Shown one piece after another: positions 1,195-46,068 of a DNA stretch of 64,000 bases. The notes beneath the pieces are model-generated. The model saw nothing but the letters and a program-made list of their open reading frames with translations, was not told the DNA's origin and did not search any database. Origin of the DNA: Acidobacteriota bacterium (GTDB taxonomy: Bacteria > Acidobacteriota > Blastocatellia > UBA7656); contig JACQDB010000043.1 in NCBI GenBank assembly GCA_016201275.1, positions 339-64,338 of the forward strand. The letters are read 5' to 3'. Each line of letters begins with the position of its first letter. The stretch's first letter is position 1. Position numbers and translations under genes: made by a program.

Positions 1195-2394
1195 ATGAGT
1201 TATCTCGATCTTCCGCCGATTCTCGAAAAGATGCTCGCAGTGGCGGATAATATTTCCGACCTCAATTTTTCGGTAGGTCGCCCACCGCAAGTGGAGATCA
1301 ATGGCAAACTGTCGCCGGTTGACATCAAGGGGCTACGCTCGCTGACGCCGTACCAGACCGAAATCATCGCCATGTCTTTGATGGAAGGCAATGTCGAATC
1401 GGCGCGCCGTCTGGTGCAGACCGGTTCGGCGGATTTGAGTTATGCGATTCCCAGCAAAGTGCGCTTTCGCGTCAACATCTTCAAACAGCGCGGCACTATC
1501 TCCATTGTGATGCGCGTTATTCCGACCTTTGTGCCGACGCTGGAAAGCCTCGAATTGCCGCCTCAACTTGGCGACATCTCGCATATGAAAACCGGCATCG
1601 TGTTATTGACCGGGCCAACCGGGTCGGGCAAATCGTCAACCCTTGCGGCCATCATTGATAAGATCAACACCGAATACAGCTATCATATCGTCACCATCGA
1701 AGACCCTATCGAATTTCTGCACACCCATAAAAAATCTACCATCAATCAACGCGAACTCGGCTCGGACACTCCGGCCTTTGCGTTAGGCTTACGGGCGGCG
1801 CTGCGGCAAGCGCCGAAAGTTATACTGGTTGGCGAGATGCGTGATATGGAGACTACGGAAATCGCTCTGGAAGCTTCGGAAACCGGCCACTTGGTGCTTT
1901 CGACGCTGCACACGACGGACGCTTCCAGAACCATCAACCGCATCATCGGCATCTATCCGAAATCCGAAGAACACGTCATCCGCACGCGCCTGGCGCACGC
2001 TTTCCGCTACATCATTTCGCAACGCCTGCTGCCCAAAGCCGACGGCAGTGGACGCCTTGCGGCGGTCGAAATATTGAAAGCCACGCCGCGCACCCGCGAA
2101 TACATTGAACAGGGCGAATCCGAAGGCAAGACTTTGATTGAAGCCATGCACGATGGCGAGTTGGAAGGGATGCAGCAGTTCGATCAGGTGATTGAACGCA
2201 TGATTCGCAGCGGCGTTGTCACCCAGGAAGACGGACTGGCTTTTGCCACCAATCCGTCGAATCTGTTGCTGCGCCTGTCCGGGCTTGGCACCTCCGACGA
2301 TATGTTGAGCCACCGCGACGACAGCACCTATAAACCATCGCGGGAAATGGATGCGCTGATGCGTTCGCGCATGGCAAACGTACTCGACAGATAA
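1195..2394 (+). CDS. pilT: Type IV pilus retraction ATPase PilT/PilU family
   Basis: Walker A 'GPTGSGKSST', PilT-type secretion ATPase signature regions (His box 'LVLSTLHT'), AGGAGA SD 7 nt upstream; 399 aa. Confidence 0.85.
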   Translation: MSYLDLPPILEKMLAVADNISDLNFSVGRPPQVEINGKLSPVDIKGLRSLTPYQTEIIAMSLMEGNVESARRLVQTGSADLSYAIPSKVRFRVNIFKQRGTISIVMRVIPTFVPTLESLELPPQLGDISHMKTGIVLLTGPTGSGKSSTLAAIIDKINTEYSYHIVTIEDPIEFLHTHKKSTINQRELGSDTPAFALGLRAALRQAPKVILVGEMRDMETTEIALEASETGHLVLSTLHTTDASRTINRIIGIYPKSEEHVIRTRLAHAFRYIISQRLLPKADGSGRLAAVEILKATPRTREYIEQGESEGKTLIEAMHDGELEGMQQFDQVIERMIRSGVVTQEDGLAFATNPSNLLLRLSGLGTSDDMLSHRDDSTYKPSREMDALMRSRMANVLDR

Positions 2395-2397
2395 AAA

Positions 2398-2470
2398 TAG
2401 TCATTAGTCCTTAGTCATGAGTCATGAGCTTGGAAATTGCAGCTAATGACTAATGACTAATGACTAAGGA
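2398..2470. repeat. Intercistronic tandem-heptamer hairpin (TCATTAG/CTAATGA units) between pilT stop and next start; right arm contains the AAGGAG SD of the downstream gene
   Basis: Left arm tagtcattagtccttagtcatgagtcatgag, loop cttggaaattgcag, right arm ctaatgactaatgactaatgactaagga; starts 4 nt after pilT TAA and ends 8 nt before ATG 2479. Confidence 0.7.
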
Positions 2471-2478
2471 GTAAAGCA

Positions 2479-3183
2479 ATGATAGCCAATTGTCCGAATT
2501 GCGCGATGAGTTTGAGTTTCGATGACGACCGCTTGCCGACCGAAGCGTTCAATGTGTTGTGTCCGCGTTGTCGGCAATCAGTGACCATCATGCCGCCGCC
2601 GAAAGAAGAGCCGAAATTGCCCGGCGTCGCCACTAAAATGGATGCCGTCATCACCGGCACGCAGGCGGCGAATGATCCGTTGCGGGCGCTTGCGGAAATG
2701 CTGATCGCCGGATTGAAGAAACAACCGCAGGGCGGCGCAGACCTGCCGTCGTGGGAGCGCCGACGAATATTATTTTGTGTTGATGAAGCAGAGATGCGCG
2801 AGCGTTTGCGAAAGGCGCTCGATCATCGCTATTACGAAATCTTTTCTTCCAACACCGCGCCCGAAGCGGTCGAACTGCTACTGGAAGCCAAAGCCGAAGT
2901 GGTGGTGTTGACGACCAACTTTGAAGCTCACAATCAAGGATGTGGCGCGTTGATGCAATACGTCAACAACCTGACGCCACAAGCCCGCCGCCGCACTTTT
3001 GTGGTGTTAATCTCTTCGCAGGTTCGCACCTTGGACTCGTATCTGGCCTTTGCCAACGGCGTCAATTTAACCGTCCATCCCGATGACGCAGATGCCTTTC
3101 AATCCATCTTCGAGCGCAGTGTACGCGATTTCAACGAACTCTATCGTCCGTTCAATCACGCCACTTCCGCTGCGCCTTTTTAA
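2479..3183 (+). CDS. MJ0042-type zinc-ribbon protein with C-terminal receiver-like (CheY-like fold?) domain
   Basis: N-terminal CPNC...CPRC (two CxxC pairs); C-terminal region alternates hydrophobic beta-like and helical segments reminiscent of a REC domain but without clear phospho-Asp context. Tightly linked to pilT. Confidence 0.45.
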   Translation: MIANCPNCAMSLSFDDDRLPTEAFNVLCPRCRQSVTIMPPPKEEPKLPGVATKMDAVITGTQAANDPLRALAEMLIAGLKKQPQGGADLPSWERRRILFCVDEAEMRERLRKALDHRYYEIFSSNTAPEAVELLLEAKAEVVVLTTNFEAHNQGCGALMQYVNNLTPQARRRTFVVLISSQVRTLDSYLAFANGVNLTVHPDDADAFQSIFERSVRDFNELYRPFNHATSAAPF

Positions 3184-4577: not shown

Positions 4578-4598
4578 GACGCGAAGGAAGTAGGCCAA

Positions 4599-22181: not shown

Positions 22182-23468
22182 TCAGCCGAAGCAATACAAT
22201 CTGCCGTCTTGTGAACCGATGACCACTTTGCCTGCGGCTATGGCCGCTGATGCCGACAGCGGCGCACCGGCATTGAACTCCCAAATCTTCGCGCCGGTCT
22301 GAAAATCCAACACGTAAAAACGCCCGTCATTCGAGCCTACGAAGACTCGGCCATCGGCAAGCACTGGCGATGATTCAACCCGCGCTCGCGTCGCAAAGGT
22401 CCAAATCGCTTTGCCGGATTTGGCATTCAAACAATGCACCATCTTGTCGCGCCCACCGATGACGAGGCGACCATCCACCACGCCTGCCGAAGCGTAAAAC
22501 GGAAACTGGCGCTGCGGATGTTGATAATGCCAACTGATGCGCCGCGTCGTTACATTGACGCCCAGCACTTCATTGTTGAAAGTGCCGTAATAGGCAAGGC
22601 CATCAACCAAAGCCGGTGACGCGCCGGTGTAAGCGCCCGAAGCAATTTGAAAAAGCTCTTTGCCATCGCTGATGCGAATCGCCCGGAATTGTTCATCGCA
22701 ACCGGCTATGTAAGCGACGCCGTTCAACACTCCCGGCGTGCAATGCACTGCGCCGTTGGTGCGGAATTTCCAGATGAGCGCGCCGCTGCGTGCATTCACA
22801 CAATAAAGCTGCTCGTCGTAAGAGCCGATTAATAATTTATCGTCCACCACGACCGGCGACGCTTTGATCTCCGCAGCGGTTTTATAGGTCCATACGCCTT
22901 TGCCTGTGCTGGCATTCACGGCGTGAATCACTCCGGCTAAATCGCCTATGTAAACCAAGCCGTCTTTGACGCACGGCGAAGAGGTTTCAATATCTCCCGT
23001 CGCATATTTCCAGCGCAACGCACCGCTTTGCAAATCGAGCGCCAGCAGTTCGCTCTTGTGCGTGCCGACATAGACCGTGCCATTTTCAATAGCCGCCGAC
23101 GATTCGATAGACTCGCCGCCTTCATAAGTCCACAACAGTTTCAAATCCTTCGGCACAGGAGACAAAGAGATCGCCGTGTTTTGCAGGTTGCCGCGAAATT
23201 GCGGCCAATGCTCGGCGAAGGTATATTTTTGCGACAAGGCAAAAGGCAAAAGGCAAAAGGCAAAAATGAAAAACACCAAGGCACCGACCAACACCCGTCT
23301 TGCATAGATCGTGCGTTGCTTGCCAACGAATAGTGGCCAAATCAAACTGGCATTGATTCGGCCAAATAACGAGGGAATTCTTGCATCAGGCAATGCGAAC
23401 CCTTGTGCTACAAACTCCGGCAAATTTTGTCTGTTGCCGCTTGCCTGTGGCTTTCTTAATACGCGCAT
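22182..23468 (-). CDS. PQQ-repeat beta-propeller protein with N-terminal signal-anchor (paralog 1)
   Basis: Eight 'DG.(V/L)Y.G(S/T).DG.(L/F)YA.D..(T/S)G...W' repeats. Start set to ATG 23468 (MRVLRK). The TM segment FIFAFCLLPFAL is encoded by GGCAAAA x4. Confidence 0.65.
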   Translation of the reverse strand: MRVLRKPQASGNRQNLPEFVAQGFALPDARIPSLFGRINASLIWPLFVGKQRTIYARRVLVGALVFFIFAFCLLPFALSQKYTFAEHWPQFRGNLQNTAISLSPVPKDLKLLWTYEGGESIESSAAIENGTVYVGTHKSELLALDLQSGALRWKYATGDIETSSPCVKDGLVYIGDLAGVIHAVNASTGKGVWTYKTAAEIKASPVVVDDKLLIGSYDEQLYCVNARSGALIWKFRTNGAVHCTPGVLNGVAYIAGCDEQFRAIRISDGKELFQIASGAYTGASPALVDGLAYYGTFNNEVLGVNVTTRRISWHYQHPQRQFPFYASAGVVDGRLVIGGRDKMVHCLNAKSGKAIWTFATRARVESSPVLADGRVFVGSNDGRFYVLDFQTGAKIWEFNAGAPLSASAAIAAGKVVIGSQDGRLYCFG

Positions 23469-24595
23469 CGGTACATCTCCAAAGCCTCGCTTGCGCCGAA
23501 GGGGCGCGGATTGAAAGTGCCTGTCCATTGTCTGGCGGCGTCCTCAGCAAGCATCTTCAAGTCGGCAGATTTGATGCCAACCTGGCTTAGGCGTTGCGGC
23601 AGTTGGCCGACTTCAATCAATTGCTCCAGTCTGGCGGCCAGCGCTTCACCGGCCTGCTTTGCAGCAGCGATATTCGCCACCTTCAACAGTTCGCCATAGC
23701 GTTCAGCCACCAACGCGCTGTTCCATCTGACCACAGACGGCAGCATCACGGCTATGGCTTCGCCGTGCGCCGTGCCATAATGCGCCGTCAACGGATTGGC
23801 GCAAGCGTGCGTTGCTCCCAGCATGGAATTTTCAATCGCCACCCCCGCGAAGTACGCTCCGAGTTGCATCGCGCCACGCCCTGCCAAGTTGTGGGGATCG
23901 GCCAGCACACGTTCATAATTGGCTTCCAACAAACGCCAGGCTTCTCGCGCATACATCTCCGACAAAGCGTTGCGCCGCGTCGTCACATAACTTTCGACGG
24001 CGTGCGAAATGGCATCAAAGCCCGCTGTTGCCGTCACTGTCACCGGTTGCGAAACCGTAAGTATGGGGTCAAGCAGCGCCACTCGAAAAGCCGCTTTCGG
24101 ATCACCGCAAGCCATCTTCTCATGGGTATCGGCATCGGCTATGAGCGCGTAGCATTGCGCTTCGCTGCCGGTTCCAGCAGTCGTCGGAATAGCTATCATC
24201 GGCAGCAGCGCTTGCGCGGCTTTCCCATAGCCCTTGTAATCGCGTATCGCGCCGCCGTTGGTCAATAAAAAATTGATGCCCTTGGCGCAATCCATAGAAC
24301 TGCCGCCGCCCAAACCGATCAGCGAATCAATAGCTAGAGACGAAGCAAAATCGCGTCCCGCTTCCACCATGCGGGTGTTCGGGTTCGCCTCGAAATCATG
24401 AAAGACAAACGCTTCAACGCCGACCTCTTTGAGCAGTCGTATCGCTTCGTCAACATAACCGCTATCCATCAACCCCTGGTCAGAAACCAACAAGGTACGG
24501 CGAAAGTTCAACGCACCTGCTGCTGCGCCAAGCTCTTTGAATTTCCCTGCGCCGTAATGGATTTGCGTGTGAAGTTGAAAATCGAATGGTTGCAT
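23456..24595 (-). CDS. Iron-containing (group III) alcohol dehydrogenase
   Basis: 'GLGGGSSMDCAKG' and His-rich metal site 'HA..H' motifs; 379 aa. Confidence 0.85.
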   Translation of the reverse strand: MQPFDFQLHTQIHYGAGKFKELGAAAGALNFRRTLLVSDQGLMDSGYVDEAIRLLKEVGVEAFVFHDFEANPNTRMVEAGRDFASSLAIDSLIGLGGGSSMDCAKGINFLLTNGGAIRDYKGYGKAAQALLPMIAIPTTAGTGSEAQCYALIADADTHEKMACGDPKAAFRVALLDPILTVSQPVTVTATAGFDAISHAVESYVTTRRNALSEMYAREAWRLLEANYERVLADPHNLAGRGAMQLGAYFAGVAIENSMLGATHACANPLTAHYGTAHGEAIAVMLPSVVRWNSALVAERYGELLKVANIAAAKQAGEALAARLEQLIEVGQLPQRLSQVGIKSADLKMLAEDAARQWTGTFNPRPFGASEALEMYRCAY

Positions 24596-24603
24596 AAAAG
24601 ATT

Positions 24604-24673
24604 GGTTATTGGTTATTGGTTATTGGTTGTTGGTTACTCGATGGGTTTCGTCATACCAGTAACCAATAACCAG
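24604..24673. repeat. Tandem-heptamer hairpin: GGTTATT x4-5 arm pairing with agtaaccaataaccag arm
   Basis: ggttattggttattggttattggttgttggttact ... agtaaccaataaccag; fills the spacer between the stop of PQQ paralog 2 (24677) and the Fe-ADH start (24595). Confidence 0.6.
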
Positions 24674-24676
24674 CAC

Positions 24677-26248
24677 CTAATTCGCAGGTTTTACTGCGGC
24701 GGCGGGTGCGGCTTTATCTGCCAACGCGAAAAGTTGATTGCGATTCATCACGTACAAAGCGCCATTGGCAGGCACGGCGCTGCTGTACACCGAACTACCC
24801 ATGCTGATTTCGGCAAGTTGTTTTTTCTCTTTACCGGCTTGCAGAATCACCACGTCGCCGTCTTCATCGCCGAGATAAACTTTACCGTCCACAACCAACG
24901 GCGATCCCCACACAGCGGCCAGCATATCGTAAACCCACATGACTTTGCCGGTCTTGGCATCCAGACAATGCAAGAAGCCGCTGAAGTCCGCGTAATAAAT
25001 CAAGCCATCGGCAATCGCGCCAGTAGAAATCGAACGGCGAATCTTGTCGTAATGCCAGACCACGCCCGCTTGCGTGATGTCGCCGCGTTTGGTTGCATCT
25101 ATGCAGTAAAGATGGCCTATGCCTTCGCCGTGTTCGGGGTCCTGGCCGTTCGCCATATAAACTTTGTTATCCCAGATGACCGGTGTGCTGATGACTTCGT
25201 TGCGCGTCTTTGGCCACACCGAATCTTTCGGGTTGCTGTCAAACTCCCAAAGTTTTTTGCCGGTCAACGCTTCGTAGCCGCGAATCCAGCCGTCGCCTTC
25301 GCCCATCACCACCTGCACGACGCCGCCAATCGTGCCGACCGCCGGTGATGACCATTGCCCGTGCAGTATGCGGTCACCAACATTGTTGACTTCCCACACC
25401 AGCTTGCCATTCTTTTTGTTAATCGCGATCAAGTTCGGGGCTTTCGGCGAAGGAATGTTGACGTGACTTTCATCTTGGCCGTTCGAGGTATTGATGAACA
25501 GCAAATCGCCGTACATGACCGGCGAGCAGTTCGACATATTATGCGGTTGCGAGCCGACCTCTTCCATCATATCGAATTTCCAGATGATGTCGGGGTCAAA
25601 CTTGCCGGTCAGTTTTTCCTCTTTATAGGGCCCGTCGTTTTCATTATCGCGGAACCCTTGCGTATCCAGGCACATCACTTCGCAACGATTGGTGACGTAA
25701 TAAAGTTTGTCGCCTTCGACCAGTGGCGACGAGCAGACGCCTTGAAAAGGCCAGTCGTTGACGCGCCCCGCAGGCAGTTTATCGTTGACCTGTTGCCATA
25801 AAAATTCGCCGGTCGCTTCGCCAAAACACATCAACACGCCTTTGTCGCCGGTCTGCTTCGCATCACGCGGCGCTTCATTATTGGTGCCAACGTAAACCTG
25901 CCCACCGGCAACCACAGGATTGCCGTAACTTTGCGAACCGAGGGTGGCAACCCATTTGATGTTGATCTTTTTGTTCACGTCCCAAGTTACCGGCAAGCCT
26001 TTCATGTTGGAAGTCATGTTGCGGTCAGGCGTGCCGCCCCACATCGGCCAATCGCCAGAGCCGGGGTCTGAAGCCAGCACTTTGTTTCCGGGTAAACTGT
26101 TTCCCAGTTGACAAATTATCAGAAACACCAGCGCCAGCACAGTGAATTTCCAGTTTGACAACCCGCTGCTGAATAAGCTTTTTGCCATTTGCCATTTGCC
26201 GTTGGTCATCTGCCATTTGCCTTCGCGCCAAGCCCTTTGCCGTTTCAT
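24677..26248 (-). CDS. Secreted PQQ-repeat beta-propeller protein (paralog 2)
   Basis: ATGA start/stop overlap with upstream paralog at 26245-26248. An alternative start at 26188 (MAKSLFSS..., signal peptide) would leave the GCCATTT repeats non-coding. Eight PQQ-like blades. Confidence 0.65.
   Translation of the reverse strand: MKRQRAWREGKWQMTNGKWQMAKSLFSSGLSNWKFTVLALVFLIICQLGNSLPGNKVLASDPGSGDWPMWGGTPDRNMTSNMKGLPVTWDVNKKINIKWVATLGSQSYGNPVVAGGQVYVGTNNEAPRDAKQTGDKGVLMCFGEATGEFLWQQVNDKLPAGRVNDWPFQGVCSSPLVEGDKLYYVTNRCEVMCLDTQGFRDNENDGPYKEEKLTGKFDPDIIWKFDMMEEVGSQPHNMSNCSPVMYGDLLFINTSNGQDESHVNIPSPKAPNLIAINKKNGKLVWEVNNVGDRILHGQWSSPAVGTIGGVVQVVMGEGDGWIRGYEALTGKKLWEFDSNPKDSVWPKTRNEVISTPVIWDNKVYMANGQDPEHGEGIGHLYCIDATKRGDITQAGVVWHYDKIRRSISTGAIADGLIYYADFSGFLHCLDAKTGKVMWVYDMLAAVWGSPLVVDGKVYLGDEDGDVVILQAGKEKKQLAEISMGSSVYSSAVPANGALYVMNRNQLFALADKAAPAAAVKPAN
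26183..26222. repeat. Tandem heptamer GCCATTT array (x4, one degenerate)
   Basis: gccatttgccatttgccgttggtcatctgccatttgcc; each unit's reverse complement contains ATG. Confidence 0.5.
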
Positions 26249-38577: not shown

Positions 38578-40995
38578 TCACTTCGCCCCGAACAAGCCTT
38601 TGAGGGTCGCAGAGATCGCCGGATAAATGTAAAACGCCACAATGATAAACAAGCCCAGCGTAAAGACCAGCACATAGTTTTGCCAGAAGCCGGTTTGAAA
38701 AGTACGCAGCACCAGCGACCCGCCTTTGCTGATCCACCCCGTCGCGTTGACCAATAAATCAATCACGTATTTGTCCCACAGATTGCTCAGACGCGCCCAC
38801 AAACGGGTCAACGCGCCCGCACCGTTTACGCCGCCATCCACCACCGTCGCGTCCACCGCCCACAAAGCGTTGTTGACGACTTTACCTGCTGCTACGCCTT
38901 TTACGTCGAGCAAGTAATCCCAATACCACTTGTTGAAACTGAGTTTGTACAGCGGCTGCAATTTCGCGCCCCACGCTTTCGCCAGTCCGGGTTTATCTAA
39001 ATAAAAAACTTTTGCCAGATACATACCAAGCAAAGCGACGAGTACGGAAGCCATCATCAAAATAAGTTCGAGCATCTGGAACGGTTTGTGTTCGCCTTCT
39101 TCGTGCGTTGCTTGCGAGGTTGCTTGCGCTTCGCTGGCAGTAGATTCAGCAGCGTTGTGCGCTTCACTGGCAGTGGTTTGCGGCGTGCCATGCGCTTCGA
39201 CAGTGGCGGTCGTGGCGTGTTGCGGTGTGGCGTGAACTTTTTCAATCACCGGATCAAGCCAATGCTCGAAGGCACTGGCGTGCGGAATACCAAGCAGCCC
39301 TATGAAAAGCGAGAAAGCCGCCAGCACGATTAACGGAATCGTCATGCTCTTGGGCGATTCGTGCGGCTCAAAATGATGATGCGCGGCGGTGTGCGTAACA
39401 AAGGGATCGCTGGCGTCTTTCGCGCCGACGTGTTCACCTGGTTGATGATGCGGACGGTCGCCTGCCGAAGCGGTCACGGCGTCGTGCGGTTTCAAATCCT
39501 TATCGTAAGCGGCAGCGTGCGCTTCGTCGGCCTCGCCACCTGCGTGAACTTTGCGAAAGCGCTCTTCGCCCCAGAACGTCAAAGCCATCAAGCGCGTCAT
39601 GTAAAACGCCGTGATGCCAGCGGTGAACAAGCCGACAATCCACAAAATTTTCGCGCCGCCGAAGCGCGTTGTATCAAAGGTATTCCAGAGAATTTCATCT
39701 TTCGACCAGAAGCCTGCCCATAGGGGAATGCCGCAGATGGCTAGCCAGCCCATCAGCATGGTCTTGTAAGTCGTCGGCAGATATTTTTTCAAGCCGCCCA
39801 TGCGCGGCATCTCCTGTTCGTGGTGCATACCATGTATGACCGAACCGGAGCCGAGGAAAAGCAGAGCTTTGAAAAAAGCGTGGGTGAAGACGTGAAAGAT
39901 AGCGGCTACGAAAGCGCCTACGCCTGCGCCTAAAAACATAAAGCCGAGTTGCGAGACCGTCGAATAAGCGAGAACTTTTTTGATGTCGGTTTGCGTGATG
40001 CCTATGGTTGCGGCGATGAATGCCGTCAAACAACCGACCACCGCGACCACCATCATCATGGTCGTCGAGCGTTGAAAAAAGAAATTGGTGCGCGTCACCA
40101 TAAAGACGCCTGCGGTCACCATAGTCGCCGCGTGTATCAAGGCAGACACCGGCGTGGGGCCTGCCATAGCGTCCGGCAACCAGATGAATAAAGGAATCTG
40201 CGCGCTCTTGCCGGTCGCCCCGATGAACAAGCCCAGCGCAATCCAACTCATCAAACCGAACGCGCCCAGCGCTTCCGGCGGATAGGCTTTCGCCAGTGCC
40301 GCCAGATCATGAAACTGCAAAGTGCCGAACATAGCAAAGACGCCAAAGATGGCCAGGGCAAAGCCTAAATCGCCTATGCGGTTGACGACGAAAGCTTTTT
40401 TGGCGGCGTCGCCCGCTTCCTGTCGGTTGATGTAATAGCCGATCAGCAGGTAGGAACATAATCCCACGCCTTCCCAGCCGACGAACATAATCATGAAGTT
40501 CGATCCCATCACCAACAGCAGCATCATGAACATAAACAGATTCAGGTACGAGAAGAAGCGATAGAAGCCGGGGTCGCCGTGCATATAGCCGGTCGCGAAG
40601 ATGTGAATCAAAAAGCCTACGAAGGTGACGACGAACATCATGACCAGCGAGAGTTGGTCTATTTGATAGCTCCACTCGATATTGAAATTCGCCAGCTTGC
40701 CTTTGTCTGCGCCTTGCGTGAGATGAGCGCGTCCGCCAGGCATCCAGGTAAAGCTGAAGCCGCCGGGTTCTTTGCTTGTGATATAAGGCTTGTCTGCGTT
40801 GTTGGGATTGAAACTGGTTTTGTATTCCACGAATGCGCCTATGGTAATCAACAGCGACAGCCCGATGACACCGCAGGCAATCCACGACACGACCTTTTCG
40901 CTGAGGTGCAGTTTTTTGCCCAAGAGAAAATTGATAAGGAAACCCAACAGTGGAAAGACAGGAATCAGCCAGACGAGTTTTAACATAATAGTCAT
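38578..40995 (-). CDS. nuoL: NADH-quinone oxidoreductase subunit L, with ~150-aa His/Ala/Thr-rich insertion
   Basis: 'WLPDAMAGPTPVSALIHAATMVTAG'; 805 aa vs ~610-650 typical; insertion region 'EADEAHAAAYDKDLKPHD...HHHFEPHESPK...HATPQHATTATVEAHGTPQ'. Confidence 0.85.
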   Translation of the reverse strand: MTIMLKLVWLIPVFPLLGFLINFLLGKKLHLSEKVVSWIACGVIGLSLLITIGAFVEYKTSFNPNNADKPYITSKEPGGFSFTWMPGGRAHLTQGADKGKLANFNIEWSYQIDQLSLVMMFVVTFVGFLIHIFATGYMHGDPGFYRFFSYLNLFMFMMLLLVMGSNFMIMFVGWEGVGLCSYLLIGYYINRQEAGDAAKKAFVVNRIGDLGFALAIFGVFAMFGTLQFHDLAALAKAYPPEALGAFGLMSWIALGLFIGATGKSAQIPLFIWLPDAMAGPTPVSALIHAATMVTAGVFMVTRTNFFFQRSTTMMMVVAVVGCLTAFIAATIGITQTDIKKVLAYSTVSQLGFMFLGAGVGAFVAAIFHVFTHAFFKALLFLGSGSVIHGMHHEQEMPRMGGLKKYLPTTYKTMLMGWLAICGIPLWAGFWSKDEILWNTFDTTRFGGAKILWIVGLFTAGITAFYMTRLMALTFWGEERFRKVHAGGEADEAHAAAYDKDLKPHDAVTASAGDRPHHQPGEHVGAKDASDPFVTHTAAHHHFEPHESPKSMTIPLIVLAAFSLFIGLLGIPHASAFEHWLDPVIEKVHATPQHATTATVEAHGTPQTTASEAHNAAESTASEAQATSQATHEEGEHKPFQMLELILMMASVLVALLGMYLAKVFYLDKPGLAKAWGAKLQPLYKLSFNKWYWDYLLDVKGVAAGKVVNNALWAVDATVVDGGVNGAGALTRLWARLSNLWDKYVIDLLVNATGWISKGGSLVLRTFQTGFWQNYVLVFTLGLFIIVAFYIYPAISATLKGLFGAK

Positions 40996-41095
40996 TAGTC
41001 CTTAGTCCTTAGTCCCTAGTCCTTAGTCTTCAGTTAAAGGTTTCGGCTCGTGAAAGCATTTAACTAAGGACTAGGGACTAAGGACTAAGGACTAA
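40996..41095. repeat. Intercistronic tandem-heptamer hairpin (AGTCCTT x5 / AAGGACT x4) between nuoK stop and nuoL start
   Basis: tagtccttagtccttagtccctagtccttagtcttcag ... ctaaggactagggactaaggactaaggactaa. The left arm abuts the nuoL start codon (40993-40995) and the right arm ends 1 nt from the nuoK stop. Confidence 0.7.
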
Positions 41096-41096
41096 A

Positions 41097-41579
41097 CTAA
41101 AATTTCAGTAAATCAATTTCGTCAATCGCTATGGTTTCGCGGTTGCGGAACAGCGCGATGACGATGCCCAAGCCGACGGCGGCTTCTGCAGCGGCGACAA
41201 CAATGATGAAAATGGTAAAGACCGGCCCGGCCAACGGGTTGACGGTCATACCGGCGCTTTTGAATGCTGTATTGAACGCTTCCTGATTGATTTGAAAGTA
41301 GCGCGAGAACGCGATCAGGTTCAGATTAACCGCGTTCAAAATTAATTCGATGGACATGAAAATGATGATGATGTTGCGGCGCGATAACACTCCGGCGACG
41401 CCTACGACGAAGAGCAGAAAACTCAACATCATGAAATTGACCAGCGTCGGCTCGAAGCGTTCCAGATTCGGCCAGACATACTTGTACGAAACGAAGCCAA
41501 CCGCACCTAAGAAAAGTACGGTGAAGATAAGGTTCGGGAGGTTGTCGCGTGAAAAGAATTTTTTAAGTCCAGAGGGCAT
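41097..41579 (-). CDS. nuoK: NADH-quinone oxidoreductase subunit K with N-terminal extra TM extension
   Basis: Canonical NuoK core from '[16 protein letters not shown]...[15 protein letters not shown]'; upstream in-frame ATG at 41579 has a GAGGAG SD at 9 nt, supporting the 160-aa form with an additional helix '[16 protein letters not shown]'. Confidence 0.8.
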
Positions 41580-41617
41580 TTATCCTTACTCCTCAATGGG
41601 TGAAAACCGAACTGCTG

Positions 41618-41688
41618 AGTTTGGCGTGCCGCCTGCAAGCGGTTGCTGCGGCTTTCAGGAAAACCGCCTGTAGGCGGCACGCCAAACT
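41618..41688. repeat. Inverted repeat gtttggcgtgccgcc / ggcggcacgccaaac in nuoK-nuoJ spacer
   Basis: 15-bp perfect core, arms extend imperfectly to ~25 bp. Confidence 0.55.
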
Positions 41689-41749
41689 TTTCTGTTTAAT
41701 CATGGCCAATGAAACGGCGTTGCGATTGCCCGGCGCGGCCTTAGCAGCC

Positions 41750-42350: not shown

Positions 42351-42452
42351 GTAGTCCTTAATCCTTAGTCCTTAGTCCTTAGTTCCCTTTCTTTGATATT
42401 CAGGTCGGTGGCAGATTTCTCTCACCGACTAATGACCAGGGACTAAGGACTA
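42351..42452. repeat. Intercistronic tandem-heptamer hairpin between nuoI stop and nuoJ start
   Basis: gtagtccttaatccttagtccttagtccttagttccc ... gactaatgaccagggactaaggactat; the right arm overlaps the nuoI TAG; nested 7-bp stem gtcggtg/caccgac inside the loop. Confidence 0.7.
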
Positions 42453-42995: not shown

Positions 42996-43077
42996 AATTC
43001 ACCTACTTACAAAAAACCAAACTTGATAGCGCAAAAAACCATTGGTTGATGCGAATCGTTAATCACAGAATCCGTTT

Positions 43078-43245
43078 TTGCGGCTCTGCCGCTTTGAGAT
43101 GCGGAAAGGCTCGGACTTTCCGGCAAGGCGACAGGAACGCTTCAACGGCTACGCCGCCAATTGGGGCGCAGCCCCGAAACCTTTCAACGAATCCTCCGGC
43201 GGGGCAAAGCCACCGCCGCACATCAAAGCGGCAAAGCCGCCTGAC
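43078..43245. repeat. Diverged third copy of the palindromic MITE-like element (see 55700 and 57131)
   Basis: gccgctttgagatgcggaaaggc ... ccgcacatcaaagcggcaaagccgc mirrors the core gccgctttgaggtgcggagaggc ... ccgcacctcaaagcggcatagccgc of the other copies. Lies in the 345-bp nuoI-nuoH spacer. Confidence 0.5.
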
Positions 43246-43340
43246 GCTTTGACACAGAACCCCTAACAGGAAGGCGTTGGTTTATCAATCGGAAATCGCC
43301 GCTTAACCCTGATTCAAGAATGCGGCGCTCAATCTTAAAC

Positions 43341-44705: not shown

Positions 44706-44717
44706 AATAATCCAAGT

Positions 44718-44832
44718 GCTGAGGACTGAGGGCTAAGGACTGAGTAAGAAATTAGACGCAAGCTATCAGGTTTGCGATTTGCCAATCATTGCAGACAAGT
44801 TTTTCACTCAGTCCTCAGTCCTCAGTCCTTTA
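44718..44832. repeat. Intercistronic hairpin, GACTGAG/CTCAGTC heptamer variant, between nuoD stop and nuoH start
   Basis: gctgaggactgagggctaaggactgagtaag ... cactcagtcctcagtcctcagtccttta; right arm includes the nuoD TAA. Confidence 0.65.
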
Positions 44833-45963: not shown

Positions 45964-45969
45964 AAGTAT

Positions 45970-46065
45970 GAGTCCTTAGTCCTCAGTCCTTAGTCCTCAG
46001 CTTGTCGTCACACGCTTTCGTTCGAGCGAATAACTAATGACCAGGGACTAAGGACTAGGGACTAA
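45970..46065. repeat. Intercistronic tandem-heptamer hairpin between nuoC stop and nuoD start
   Basis: gagtccttagtcctcagtccttagtcctcag ... taactaatgaccagggactaaggactagggactaa; the right arm is near-identical to that of the 42351 hairpin (ctaatgaccagggactaaggacta). Confidence 0.7.
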
Positions 46066-46068
46066 AAT

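Follow-up and report, generated by a model that had tools for sequence, protein, structure and literature searches.

A heptanucleotide-repeat hairpin between pilT and a zinc-ribbon gene in an acidobacterium, and its place in a dispersed class of intergenic repeats

Introduction

To our knowledge, few simple repeats are as over-represented in the intergenic DNA of bacteria as heptanucleotide tandem repeats, which lack an accepted function. Nor do we know of an established function for the short tandemly repeated repetitive (STRR) sequences, tandem heptanucleotides that were reportedly described in Calothrix and Anabaena by Mazel et al. in 1990. Here we analyse a 76-base hairpin built from heptamer repeats, which lies between pilT and a zinc-ribbon gene in a 64,000-nt stretch of DNA (the window: contig JACQDB010000043.1 of assembly GCA_016201275.1, positions 339 to 64,338 of the forward strand). 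The host is a Blastocatellia-like acidobacterial metagenome-assembled genome, and the closest relatives of the zinc-ribbon protein are annotated as Blastocatellia.

Several repeats of this length have been reported. PMC4692102 cites the heptanucleotides of Calothrix PCC 7601 and, with reference to Mrazek et al. 2007, the over-representation of heptameric simple sequence repeats in bacterial intergenic DNA, for which polymerase slippage is suggested. According to PMC4284476, conserved intergenic stem-loops at processing sites in the Anabaena nif genes stabilise the transcripts downstream; its reference list includes a report of nif intergenic regions as 'highly variable but structured' (Jackman & Mulligan 1995). 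GGGAATC and GGGGA(T/C)T repeats have been reported in Xanthomonas and Nostoc (Rehm et al. 2015, PMC4692102), and heptamer repeats near Nostoc recF and recO alter reporter expression (bioRxiv 10.1101/2022.06.06.494920). TAACTGA direct repeats occur in marine Beggiatoaceae, Cyanobacteria and Bacteroidetes (MacGregor 2015, PMC4679880), with a translational role proposed, not demonstrated (PMC4679880). Within the library that we searched, we found no paper with the unit sequences reported below and none describing the class in Acidobacteria.

Results

Anatomy and folding of the hairpin

The element after pilT is a member of a cyanobacterial STRR-like class of heptanucleotide tandem repeats, which is dispersed, changes fast and fills the gaps between genes. 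The pilT stop codon TAA is at 2392-2394, the zinc-ribbon gene starts at the ATG at 2479, and the 84-nt spacer between them is filled by the hairpin at 2398-2473, with the first heptamer beginning 3 nt after the stop. Outside the two arms and the loop (Table 1) the spacer holds only AAA on the left and AAGCA on the right. Tandem Repeats Finder detected one period-7 array in each arm, at 2398-2425 (TAGTCAT, 4.0 copies) and at 2443-2467 (CTAATGA, 3.6 copies, 100% match). The inverted-repeat search gave arms of 33 nt at 2398-2430 and 2441-2473, 85% complementary with 10 nt between them, and two further registers, each offset by 7 nt.

The original prediction, made from the letters alone, had placed a hairpin here, and its coordinates, sequences and distances were all borne out. 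The in silico fold that it asked for gave stable pairing, with an RNA minimum free energy (MFE) of -31.5 kcal/mol compared with -16.7 +/- 2.9 kcal/mol for 200 dinucleotide shuffles (z = -5.1), none of which was as stable.

Copies in the window and in Blastocatellia genomes

The two-unit pattern TAGTCMTKAGTCMT has 23 matches in the window, where 0.02 are expected, and they fall in five spacers: pilT–zinc-ribbon, nuoC–nuoD, nuoD–nuoH, nuoI–nuoJ and nuoK–nuoL. Each of the five hairpins is flanked by co-directional genes and nearly exactly fills its spacer, with the upstream stop codon 0-5 nt before the stem or within its first unit and the downstream start 5-13 nt after it; at nuoI–nuoJ, AAGGA stands 5 nt ahead of the nuoJ ATG. 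The loops are mutually unrelated, and the 7-nt unit is the only common part. In four hairpins the TCCT arm precedes the AGGA arm, and nuoD–nuoH has the opposite order; arm order is intrinsic and independent of the direction of transcription, because an inverted repeat is identical on both strands. Six heptamer units occur in the window (TAGTCCT, TAGTCAT, ATTGGTT, AAGGCAA, TTTGCCA and CAAACGG).

About 227 kb of Blastocatellia DNA was surveyed, the loci having been picked around known hairpins, which biases the sample towards the target spacers. Arrays were about 21-fold denser outside open reading frames (ORFs) than inside them (37 in 31 kb and 11 in 196 kb, respectively). Of the spacers of at least 40 nt, 22 of the 100 co-directional ones carry arrays, as do 2 of the 21 convergent ones, and the 20 divergent ones have none; the contrast weakens when the target spacers are removed, to 9 of about 75 co-directional spacers against the same 2 of 21 and 0 of 20.

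Distribution across phyla

An exact scan for TAGTCCTTAGTCCTTAGTCC, with one genome per species, detected TAGTCCT arrays at a minimum of 119 loci, which belong to at least 8 bacterial phyla. The matches listed include Cyanobacteria, Bacteroidota, Acidobacteriota, Planctomycetota, Chloroflexota, Verrucomicrobiota, Gemmatimonadota and others, as well as Gamma-, Delta-, Alpha- and Betaproteobacteria. In cyanobacterial copies, as in the window, the partner of a TAGTCCT/TAGTCAT array is often an array of CTAATGA or CCAATGA (L009, L013, L089, L094, L107). The original prediction that the element class is not nuo-specific was right and indeed understated, with a pilT copy beside four nuo copies, spacers of relatives and many phyla.

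The placement of the arrays relative to genes was asymmetric. Among the matches listed, the ATG of a long ORF lies within 15 nt in 24 of 113 flanks on the AAGGACT strand and in 3 of 115 on the other strand (Fisher p = 8e-6), and any start codon lies within 30 nt in 40 versus 17 of the same flanks (p = 4e-4). A same-family inverted partner within 200 nt was found at 40 of these listed loci. Of the 23 hairpins in which the TCCT arm leads, ten, drawn from four phyla, are followed by an ATG 3-16 nt past the AGGA arm, and in most of the ten a gene ends just ahead of the other arm. The placement counts therefore make a Shine-Dalgarno (SD)-like core at the ribosome-binding position a class-level property of the TAGTCCT unit, and suggest that the AAGGACT unit supplies, or grew from, an SD site.

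Exact arrays of about three TAGTCCT copies were also observed in five IMG/VR viral contigs (L135-L139). Metagenome contigs were scanned with the exact 19-mer GGAGTAAAGCAATGATAGC for strain variants, and only two unrelated chance matches were returned.

Class identity

The features that define STRR-type repeats are present at this locus. At least three 7-nt copies stand head to tail in each arm (4.0 and 3.6); the repeats are non-coding with many dispersed copies (23 matches in five spacers, about 21-fold denser outside ORFs); and there are several unit families with variation among close relatives (six units in the window, other units in orthologous spacers). STRRs in the strict sense have a heterocystous cyanobacterial host and the canonical STRR1-3 units; here the host is acidobacterial and the units differ.

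Rfam 15 gave no family match for the whole window at the gathering score, and at a permissive E-value region 2300-2600 returned only sub-threshold generic hairpins, mostly microRNA precursors. A miniature inverted-repeat transposable element (MITE) was rejected, with unrelated loops in the five copies and no flanking duplications evident, and so was a repetitive extragenic palindromic (REP) sequence or bacterial interspersed mosaic element (BIME), since the copies share the 7-nt unit alone and their loops and arm lengths are unrelated. The unrelated loops rule out any mobile element with a conserved core, such as a MITE or REP.

Orthologous spacers in related Blastocatellia

Nine related loci with pilT followed by the zinc-ribbon gene provided eight distinct spacers (L129 and L130 are identical; Table 1). 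Inspection of the relatives' pilT loci, a check named in the original prediction, revealed spacers with heptamer hairpins of other units (L001, L131). The only alignable parts of the orthologous spacers are the 3' end of pilT and GGAG(N5-9)ATG, which identifies GGAG, a core common to nearly all orthologues looked at (with the exception of L004), as the ancestral SD. The CTAATGA array of the window, to judge by its junction (CTAA followed directly by GGAG), grew up to this ancestral GGAG. The SD lies outside the stem in most orthologues, so that SD masking is not a conserved property of this spacer.

A change of unit in the left arm goes with one in the right (TCATTAG/CTAATGA, TCATTGG/CCAATGA, TTATTGG/CCAATAA), and pairing has therefore been kept during unit drift. 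MAFFT alignment and RNAalifold of six orthologous spacers gave an 8-pair stem in the repeat region (13 pairs in total, -3.1 kcal/mol); the covariation is uninformative because the repeat units are not unambiguously alignable, and per-sequence folds were used.

The nuo spacers of relatives behave similarly. L126, with a NuoD 97% identical to that of the window, has orthologous TAGTCCT hairpins with recognisably related loops at nuoI–nuoJ and nuoK–nuoL. L127 (NuoD 94%) has TTATTGG and GTTACTT hairpins at the same two spacers, and L128 (NuoD 92%) has a GTGATGA hairpin at nuoK–nuoL and a GGATGAA hairpin at nuoJ–nuoK. The units other than TAGTCCT in the relatives' nuo spacers carry no SD content. 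A strict automatic criterion, a heptamer array with an inverted partner, picked out 9 of 20 orthologous spacers in relatives, while any array at all is held by about 12% of the non-target co-directional spacers.

SD masking and translation of the zinc-ribbon gene

AAGGAG at 2466-2471 is the sole SD-like motif, and 2472-2478 contains no other SD. The MFE structure pairs A2466, A2467, G2469 and A2470 and leaves G2468 and G2471 mismatched, so that 4 of the 6 nt of the SD are paired; the ensemble probabilities of being unpaired are, from 2466 to 2471, 0.01, 0.27, 0.98, 0.05, 0.05 and 0.78. Folded in a longer context, GAGUA can pair as well with UACUC in the final pilT codons. The original prediction put the sole SD inside the stem, which is correct as to its being the only one, but the motif is not deep in the helix and sits at its interrupted basal end.

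Forcing 2466-2471 open costs 3.76 kcal/mol, with 4-5 of 6 nt paired and G2469/A2470 unpaired at a probability of about 0.05. The cost is low because the tandem-repeat arms let the stem slip by 7 nt: the full register (-30.6 kcal/mol) leaves the SD partly paired, the register shifted by -7 (-26.7 kcal/mol) leaves AGGAGUA single-stranded, and the register shifted by +7 (-22.2 kcal/mol) pairs UCCUU with AAGGA. Opening of the region from -18 to +10 costs 12.2 kcal/mol, the third highest value among the 30 ATG-start genes in the window (median about 8). Given these costs for the SD and the initiation region, the hairpin should damp initiation rather than abolish it.

We also modelled a ribosome terminating at the pilT stop. 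With the 5' side open through 2403-2406, the probability that G2469/A2470 are unpaired increases from 0.05 to 0.26-0.35; a ribosome reaching as far as 2406 shifts the stem into the UCCUU:AAGGA register, and unmasking, and with it coupling, is therefore partial at best.

The proposal that the hairpin could gate translation of the downstream cistron thus keeps a partly paired SD in its favour, but the masking is weak (3.76 kcal/mol) and not conserved in orthologues. A second SD or a lack of stable pairing had been named as findings that would speak against gating; the SD is single and the pairing stable, and the idea is weakened, not excluded. The overlap of the hairpin with the SD looks incidental.

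The gene pair and other structured spacers

The zinc-ribbon gene follows pilT at every related Blastocatellia locus looked at (L001-L006, L129-L131), and all orthologues share the N-terminus MIANCPNC. The protein, which may serve the pilus retraction ATPase as a conserved partner or regulator, has 326 homologues at E <= 1e-3, whose annotations vary, CheY-like and PleD-like among them.

Table 1. Features of the window, with the spacers orthologous to pilT–zinc-ribbon in related Blastocatellia (percentages are zinc-ribbon amino-acid identities to the window copy)
Feature	Position	Strand	Details
pilT, upstream cistron	1195..2394	+	PilT/PilU-family type IVa pilus ATPase; PF00437; TIGR01420 393.5 bits (cutoff 319)
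Hairpin 5' arm	2398..2430	+	TAGTCAT TAGTCCT TAGTCAT GAGTCAT GAGCT
Hairpin loop	2431..2440	+	TGGAAATTGC; unique, no kinship with loops of other copies
Hairpin 3' arm	2441..2473	+	AG CTAATGA CTAATGA CTAATGA CTAAGGA GTA
SD AAGGAG of zinc-ribbon gene	2466..2471	+	7 nt ahead of ATG; frayed stem base
Zinc-ribbon gene, downstream cistron	2479..3183	+	234 aa; MJ0042-type (PF13717), receiver-like C-terminal part
Sister hairpin, nuoK–nuoL spacer	40989..41095	-	TAGTCCT / AGGACTA; one register of 33 nt with 100% complementarity
Sister hairpin, nuoI–nuoJ spacer	42352..42452	-	5' arm opens with the nuoI stop TAG
Sister hairpin, nuoD–nuoH spacer	44714..44830	-	reversed arm order: AGGACTG arm, then CAGTCCT arm
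Sister hairpin, nuoC–nuoD spacer	45971..46065	-	AAGGAC in 3'-arm base, 9 nt ahead of nuoD ATG
Orthologous spacer L001			86%; long hairpin TTACTGG/TTATTGG/TCATTGG with CCAATAA; SD outside stem
Orthologous spacer L002			85%; degenerate TAGCCCC.../GGCTAAGGGCTA; SD outside stem
Orthologous spacer L003			82%; (TAGTCCT)3 left arm without matching right arm
Orthologous spacers L129, L130			80%; short TTCATTG/CAATGAA stem; SD outside stem
Orthologous spacer L131			72%; GTGGTCA-type hairpin; SD outside stem
Orthologous spacer L004			70%; without heptamer hairpin; GGGGGGA in place of GGAG
Orthologous spacer L005			68%; partial GTCATTG/CAATGAC; SD outside stem
Orthologous spacer L006			66%; without heptamer hairpin

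Other repeats and structured spacers were observed in the window. Five ATTGGTT copies with an AACCAAT-type partner form a hairpin at 24601-24681 (27 nt, 81% complementary) between the convergent genes 23594-24268 (+) and 24677-26248 (-), the sole hairpin of this class in the window that is not between co-directional genes. The AAGGCAA/TTGCCTT family is one-armed, both in the window (23236-23265) and in L001 (18879-18918), L002 (5384-5413), L005 (1858-1894) and L003 (9776-9806); the L002 array begins at the stop codon of the zinc-ribbon gene. The nuoH–nuoI (42996-43340) and nuoJ–nuoK (41580-41749) spacers contain long G+C-rich hairpins without heptamer periodicity (-135 and -73 kcal/mol), another kind of structured intergenic sequence in the same operon. 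The longest nuoK ORF (41097-41579) encodes 160 aa with the Pfam domain starting at residue 49, and its orthologues have 137-143 aa; the true nuoK start is probably further downstream, making the nuoJ–nuoK spacer longer than the ORF list implies.

Discussion

A proposed intercistronic stem-loop

We tentatively interpret the element as an STRR-like intercistronic mRNA stem-loop, whose main effect would be on the stability or processing of the transcript, together with modest damping of the SD and modest coupling. The pilT and zinc-ribbon genes are likely carried by one bicistronic mRNA, because a scan found no promoter-like site in the spacer and the gene pair is conserved. Within this mRNA the spacer would be transcribed and fold into an imperfect stem-loop of about 29 bp, which could punctuate the transcript as a barrier to 3'-to-5' decay or as a processing site; such punctuation would set the relative stability of the two cistrons. 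Weak masking of the downstream SD (about 4 kcal/mol) would damp translation of the zinc-ribbon gene, which might rely in part on ribosomes that end at the pilT stop and unwind the stem at its base. Replication slippage, together with arm-to-arm template switching, probably makes and turns over the arms, and the array may have grown against the ancestral GGAG without a dedicated SD switch evolving.

Several observations weigh against this interpretation. Folding of the sense and antisense strands is balanced in 19 spacers (10 versus 9, Wilcoxon p = 0.73, with low power), and the same 19 spacers have no G-U signature of selection on the transcribed strand (again with low power). Arm order has no clear bias either: among the matches listed, the 40 paired loci have TCCT first in 23 and AGGA first in 17, and an arm-order bias as a class rule was dropped. 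Single-armed arrays exist in the window (at 4596, 23236 and 26181) and in L003. In the eight orthologous spacers GGAG is 3' of the stem in five, two of them strict heptamer hairpins. The nuoC–nuoD and nuoD–nuoH spacers of L126 (9886-10000 and 11135-11239) hold unrelated hairpins with units CAGATGT and AACGATG; both units and loops differ from those of the window (45964-46068 and 44706-44829), and whole spacers seem to have been replaced between genomes with 97% identical NuoD. The low cost of opening the SD and the slip of the stem under a terminating ribosome belong here too, and the organism is uncultured, so that co-transcription, the stability or processing role, coupling and the mutational mechanism are read from sequence.

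A possible mutational by-product

The same observations bear on an alternative that we hold to be nearly as likely, that the hairpin is a non-functional mutational by-product, in which slippage-grown arrays acquire partners by fold-back or template switching, the hairpin is tolerated and the overlap with the SD is accidental. Growth of the arrays would then halt only at sequence under selection, which is the stop codon at the left end and the SD at the right; the arrays do adjoin the stop codon (0-6 nt) and the conserved GGAG. Rapid turnover of unit and loop even where NuoD is 97% identical, one-armed and degenerate forms in orthologous spacers, symmetrical folding of the two strands and the presence of both arm orders all fit such an origin, and the excess of bacterial heptamer simple sequence repeats is ascribed to polymerase slippage (as cited in PMC4692102). 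It does not account well, however, for the continued occupation of the same spacers despite replacement of their sequence (9 of 20 orthologous versus about 12% of other co-directional spacers), for the 0 of 20 divergent, promoter-bearing spacers with arrays, or for the covariation of the arms that keeps the pairing; and a stem of about -30 kcal/mol within an mRNA is unlikely to be free of effect. A slippage origin and an effect at the RNA level are not mutually exclusive.

Possible coupling modules and SD switches

A further reading, which we regard as doubtful, is that hairpins whose 5' arm is (UAGUCCU)n and whose 3' arm is (AGGACUA)n are a cross-phylum translational-coupling module. The 16S rRNA 3' end is UCCUUA, and the TCCTTAG unit of the 5' arm matches it. 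The 5' arm, adjoining the upstream stop codon, would imitate the rRNA end, and the 3' arm, adjoining the downstream start codon, would present tandem SD sites; ribosomes completing the upstream gene would unmask the SD array, and slippage in repeat number could shift the register and so tune or phase-vary the downstream output. The coupling module is compatible with the data because AAGGACT arrays precede an ATG in 24 of 113 versus 3 of 115 flanks, and because of the 10 of 23 TCCT-first hairpins described above, both among the matches listed.

We consider a dedicated SD-sequestering switch quite unlikely. The left arm would serve as anti-SD and the gene would stay silent until temperature, some trans-acting factor or an altered number of repeats gave the signal that opens the stem. 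In favour of a switch, the only SD, AAGGAG, has 4-5 of 6 nt paired, and in one register UCCUU is base-paired to AAGGA, like the 16S anti-SD; three nuo hairpins have their only SD-like motif in the 3'-arm base, and the ten listed TCCT-first hairpins with an ATG 3-16 nt after the AGGA arm point the same way. But a 7-nt slip frees the SD at a cost of 3.76 kcal/mol, and masking is not conserved: the SD is 3' of the stem in L001, L002, L129, L131 and L005, and L004 and L006 are hairpin-free. The relatives' units at the same nuo spacers are without SD content, the loops are not conserved as a ligand or factor site would be, and the element matches no Rfam family.

Possible DNA-level roles and termination

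A role at the DNA level, as tandem heptad protein sites or as a cruciform affecting replication, recombination or the local nucleoid, appears improbable. Folding potential is equal on both strands, and heptamer direct repeats bind proteins elsewhere (Streptomyces antibiotic regulatory protein (SARP) regulators; a Nostoc binder has been suggested, bioRxiv 10.1101/2022.06.06.494920). The units vary between copies and species, however, so that no single DNA-binding specificity fits, and the arrays are absent from divergent promoter regions (0 of 20) and lie between genes that are presumably co-transcribed. The least probable reading, to which we give very little weight, is a transcription terminator or attenuator that cuts read-through from pilT into the zinc-ribbon gene: a long stable hairpin right after a stop codon and one sister hairpin between convergent genes (24601-24681) would suit it, but the stem is AT-rich and interrupted, no U-tract follows it (GGAGTAAAGCA) and no terminator is called at 2398-2480, which led us to reject an intrinsic (Rho-independent) terminator, four copies lie within the nuo operon between subunit genes that all need expression, and only 2 of 21 convergent spacers have arrays.

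Significance

The pilT hairpin is ordinary for its class, and its gating of the SD is weak and not conserved. The locus extends the heptamer-repeat class to Acidobacteria, where the same operon spacers stay occupied by repeats even as unit and loop are replaced, and where covariation of the arms preserves their pairing. One widespread unit with an SD core stands preferentially just upstream of start codons in many phyla. The persistence of occupied spacers despite turnover and the AAGGACT arrays at ribosome-binding positions deserve follow-up as class-level patterns. In nuo and similar operons the hairpins would be a cheap and rapidly evolving means of setting the ratios of subunits if they affect mRNA stability or couple translation; should they be neutral, they would be a mutation-driven structure that mimics regulatory RNA, a trap for genome scans.

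Comparison with known systems

REP/BIME elements of enterobacteria are dispersed extragenic palindromes, often located within operons and transcribed, and their stem-loops shield upstream mRNA from 3' exonucleases. In REPs a sequence of about 35 nt is conserved, and there is a link to the REP-associated tyrosine transposase (RAYT), whereas the element described here is without a conserved core, its arms being simple 7-nt repeats whose units change from copy to copy. Intercistronic hairpins that mask an SD couple translation in phage MS2 (coat/replicase) and in several E. coli operons. The pilT hairpin resembles these in having the upstream stop beside the 5' side of the stem and the downstream SD on the 3' side, with a stem that a terminating ribosome would open; it differs in that the masking is weak (3.8 kcal/mol), slips in register and is not conserved in orthologues.

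Among heptamer repeats, TAACTGA is similar in its occurrence in unrelated phyla and in arrays placed a few nt upstream of start codons, over the expected ribosome-binding site. Its repeats are, however, nearly all direct (one indirect set among 170) and form no hairpins (PMC4679880), and the unit is another one without SD character, whereas AAGGACT carries the SD core. The Xanthomonas GGGAATC repeats likewise recur between the same genes when related species are compared, vary extensively in length and sequence, and in some cases form inverted pairs with stem-loop or cruciform potential (PMC4692102). They are G-rich and were investigated for G-quadruplex formation; the units described here are AT-rich and free of G-runs.

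The STRRs of heterocystous cyanobacteria and the structured Anabaena nif spacers remain the closest relatives in kind. The canonical STRR units CCCCAGT, TTGGTCA and CAACAGT are not those of this element, and the host here is an acidobacterium. With STRRs it shares tandem 7-nt intergenic units, dispersed in many copies and belonging to several families within a genome, and with STRRs and the nif spacers it shares inverted array pairs that form stem-loops between operon genes, with a sequence that varies among close relatives while the structure is kept.

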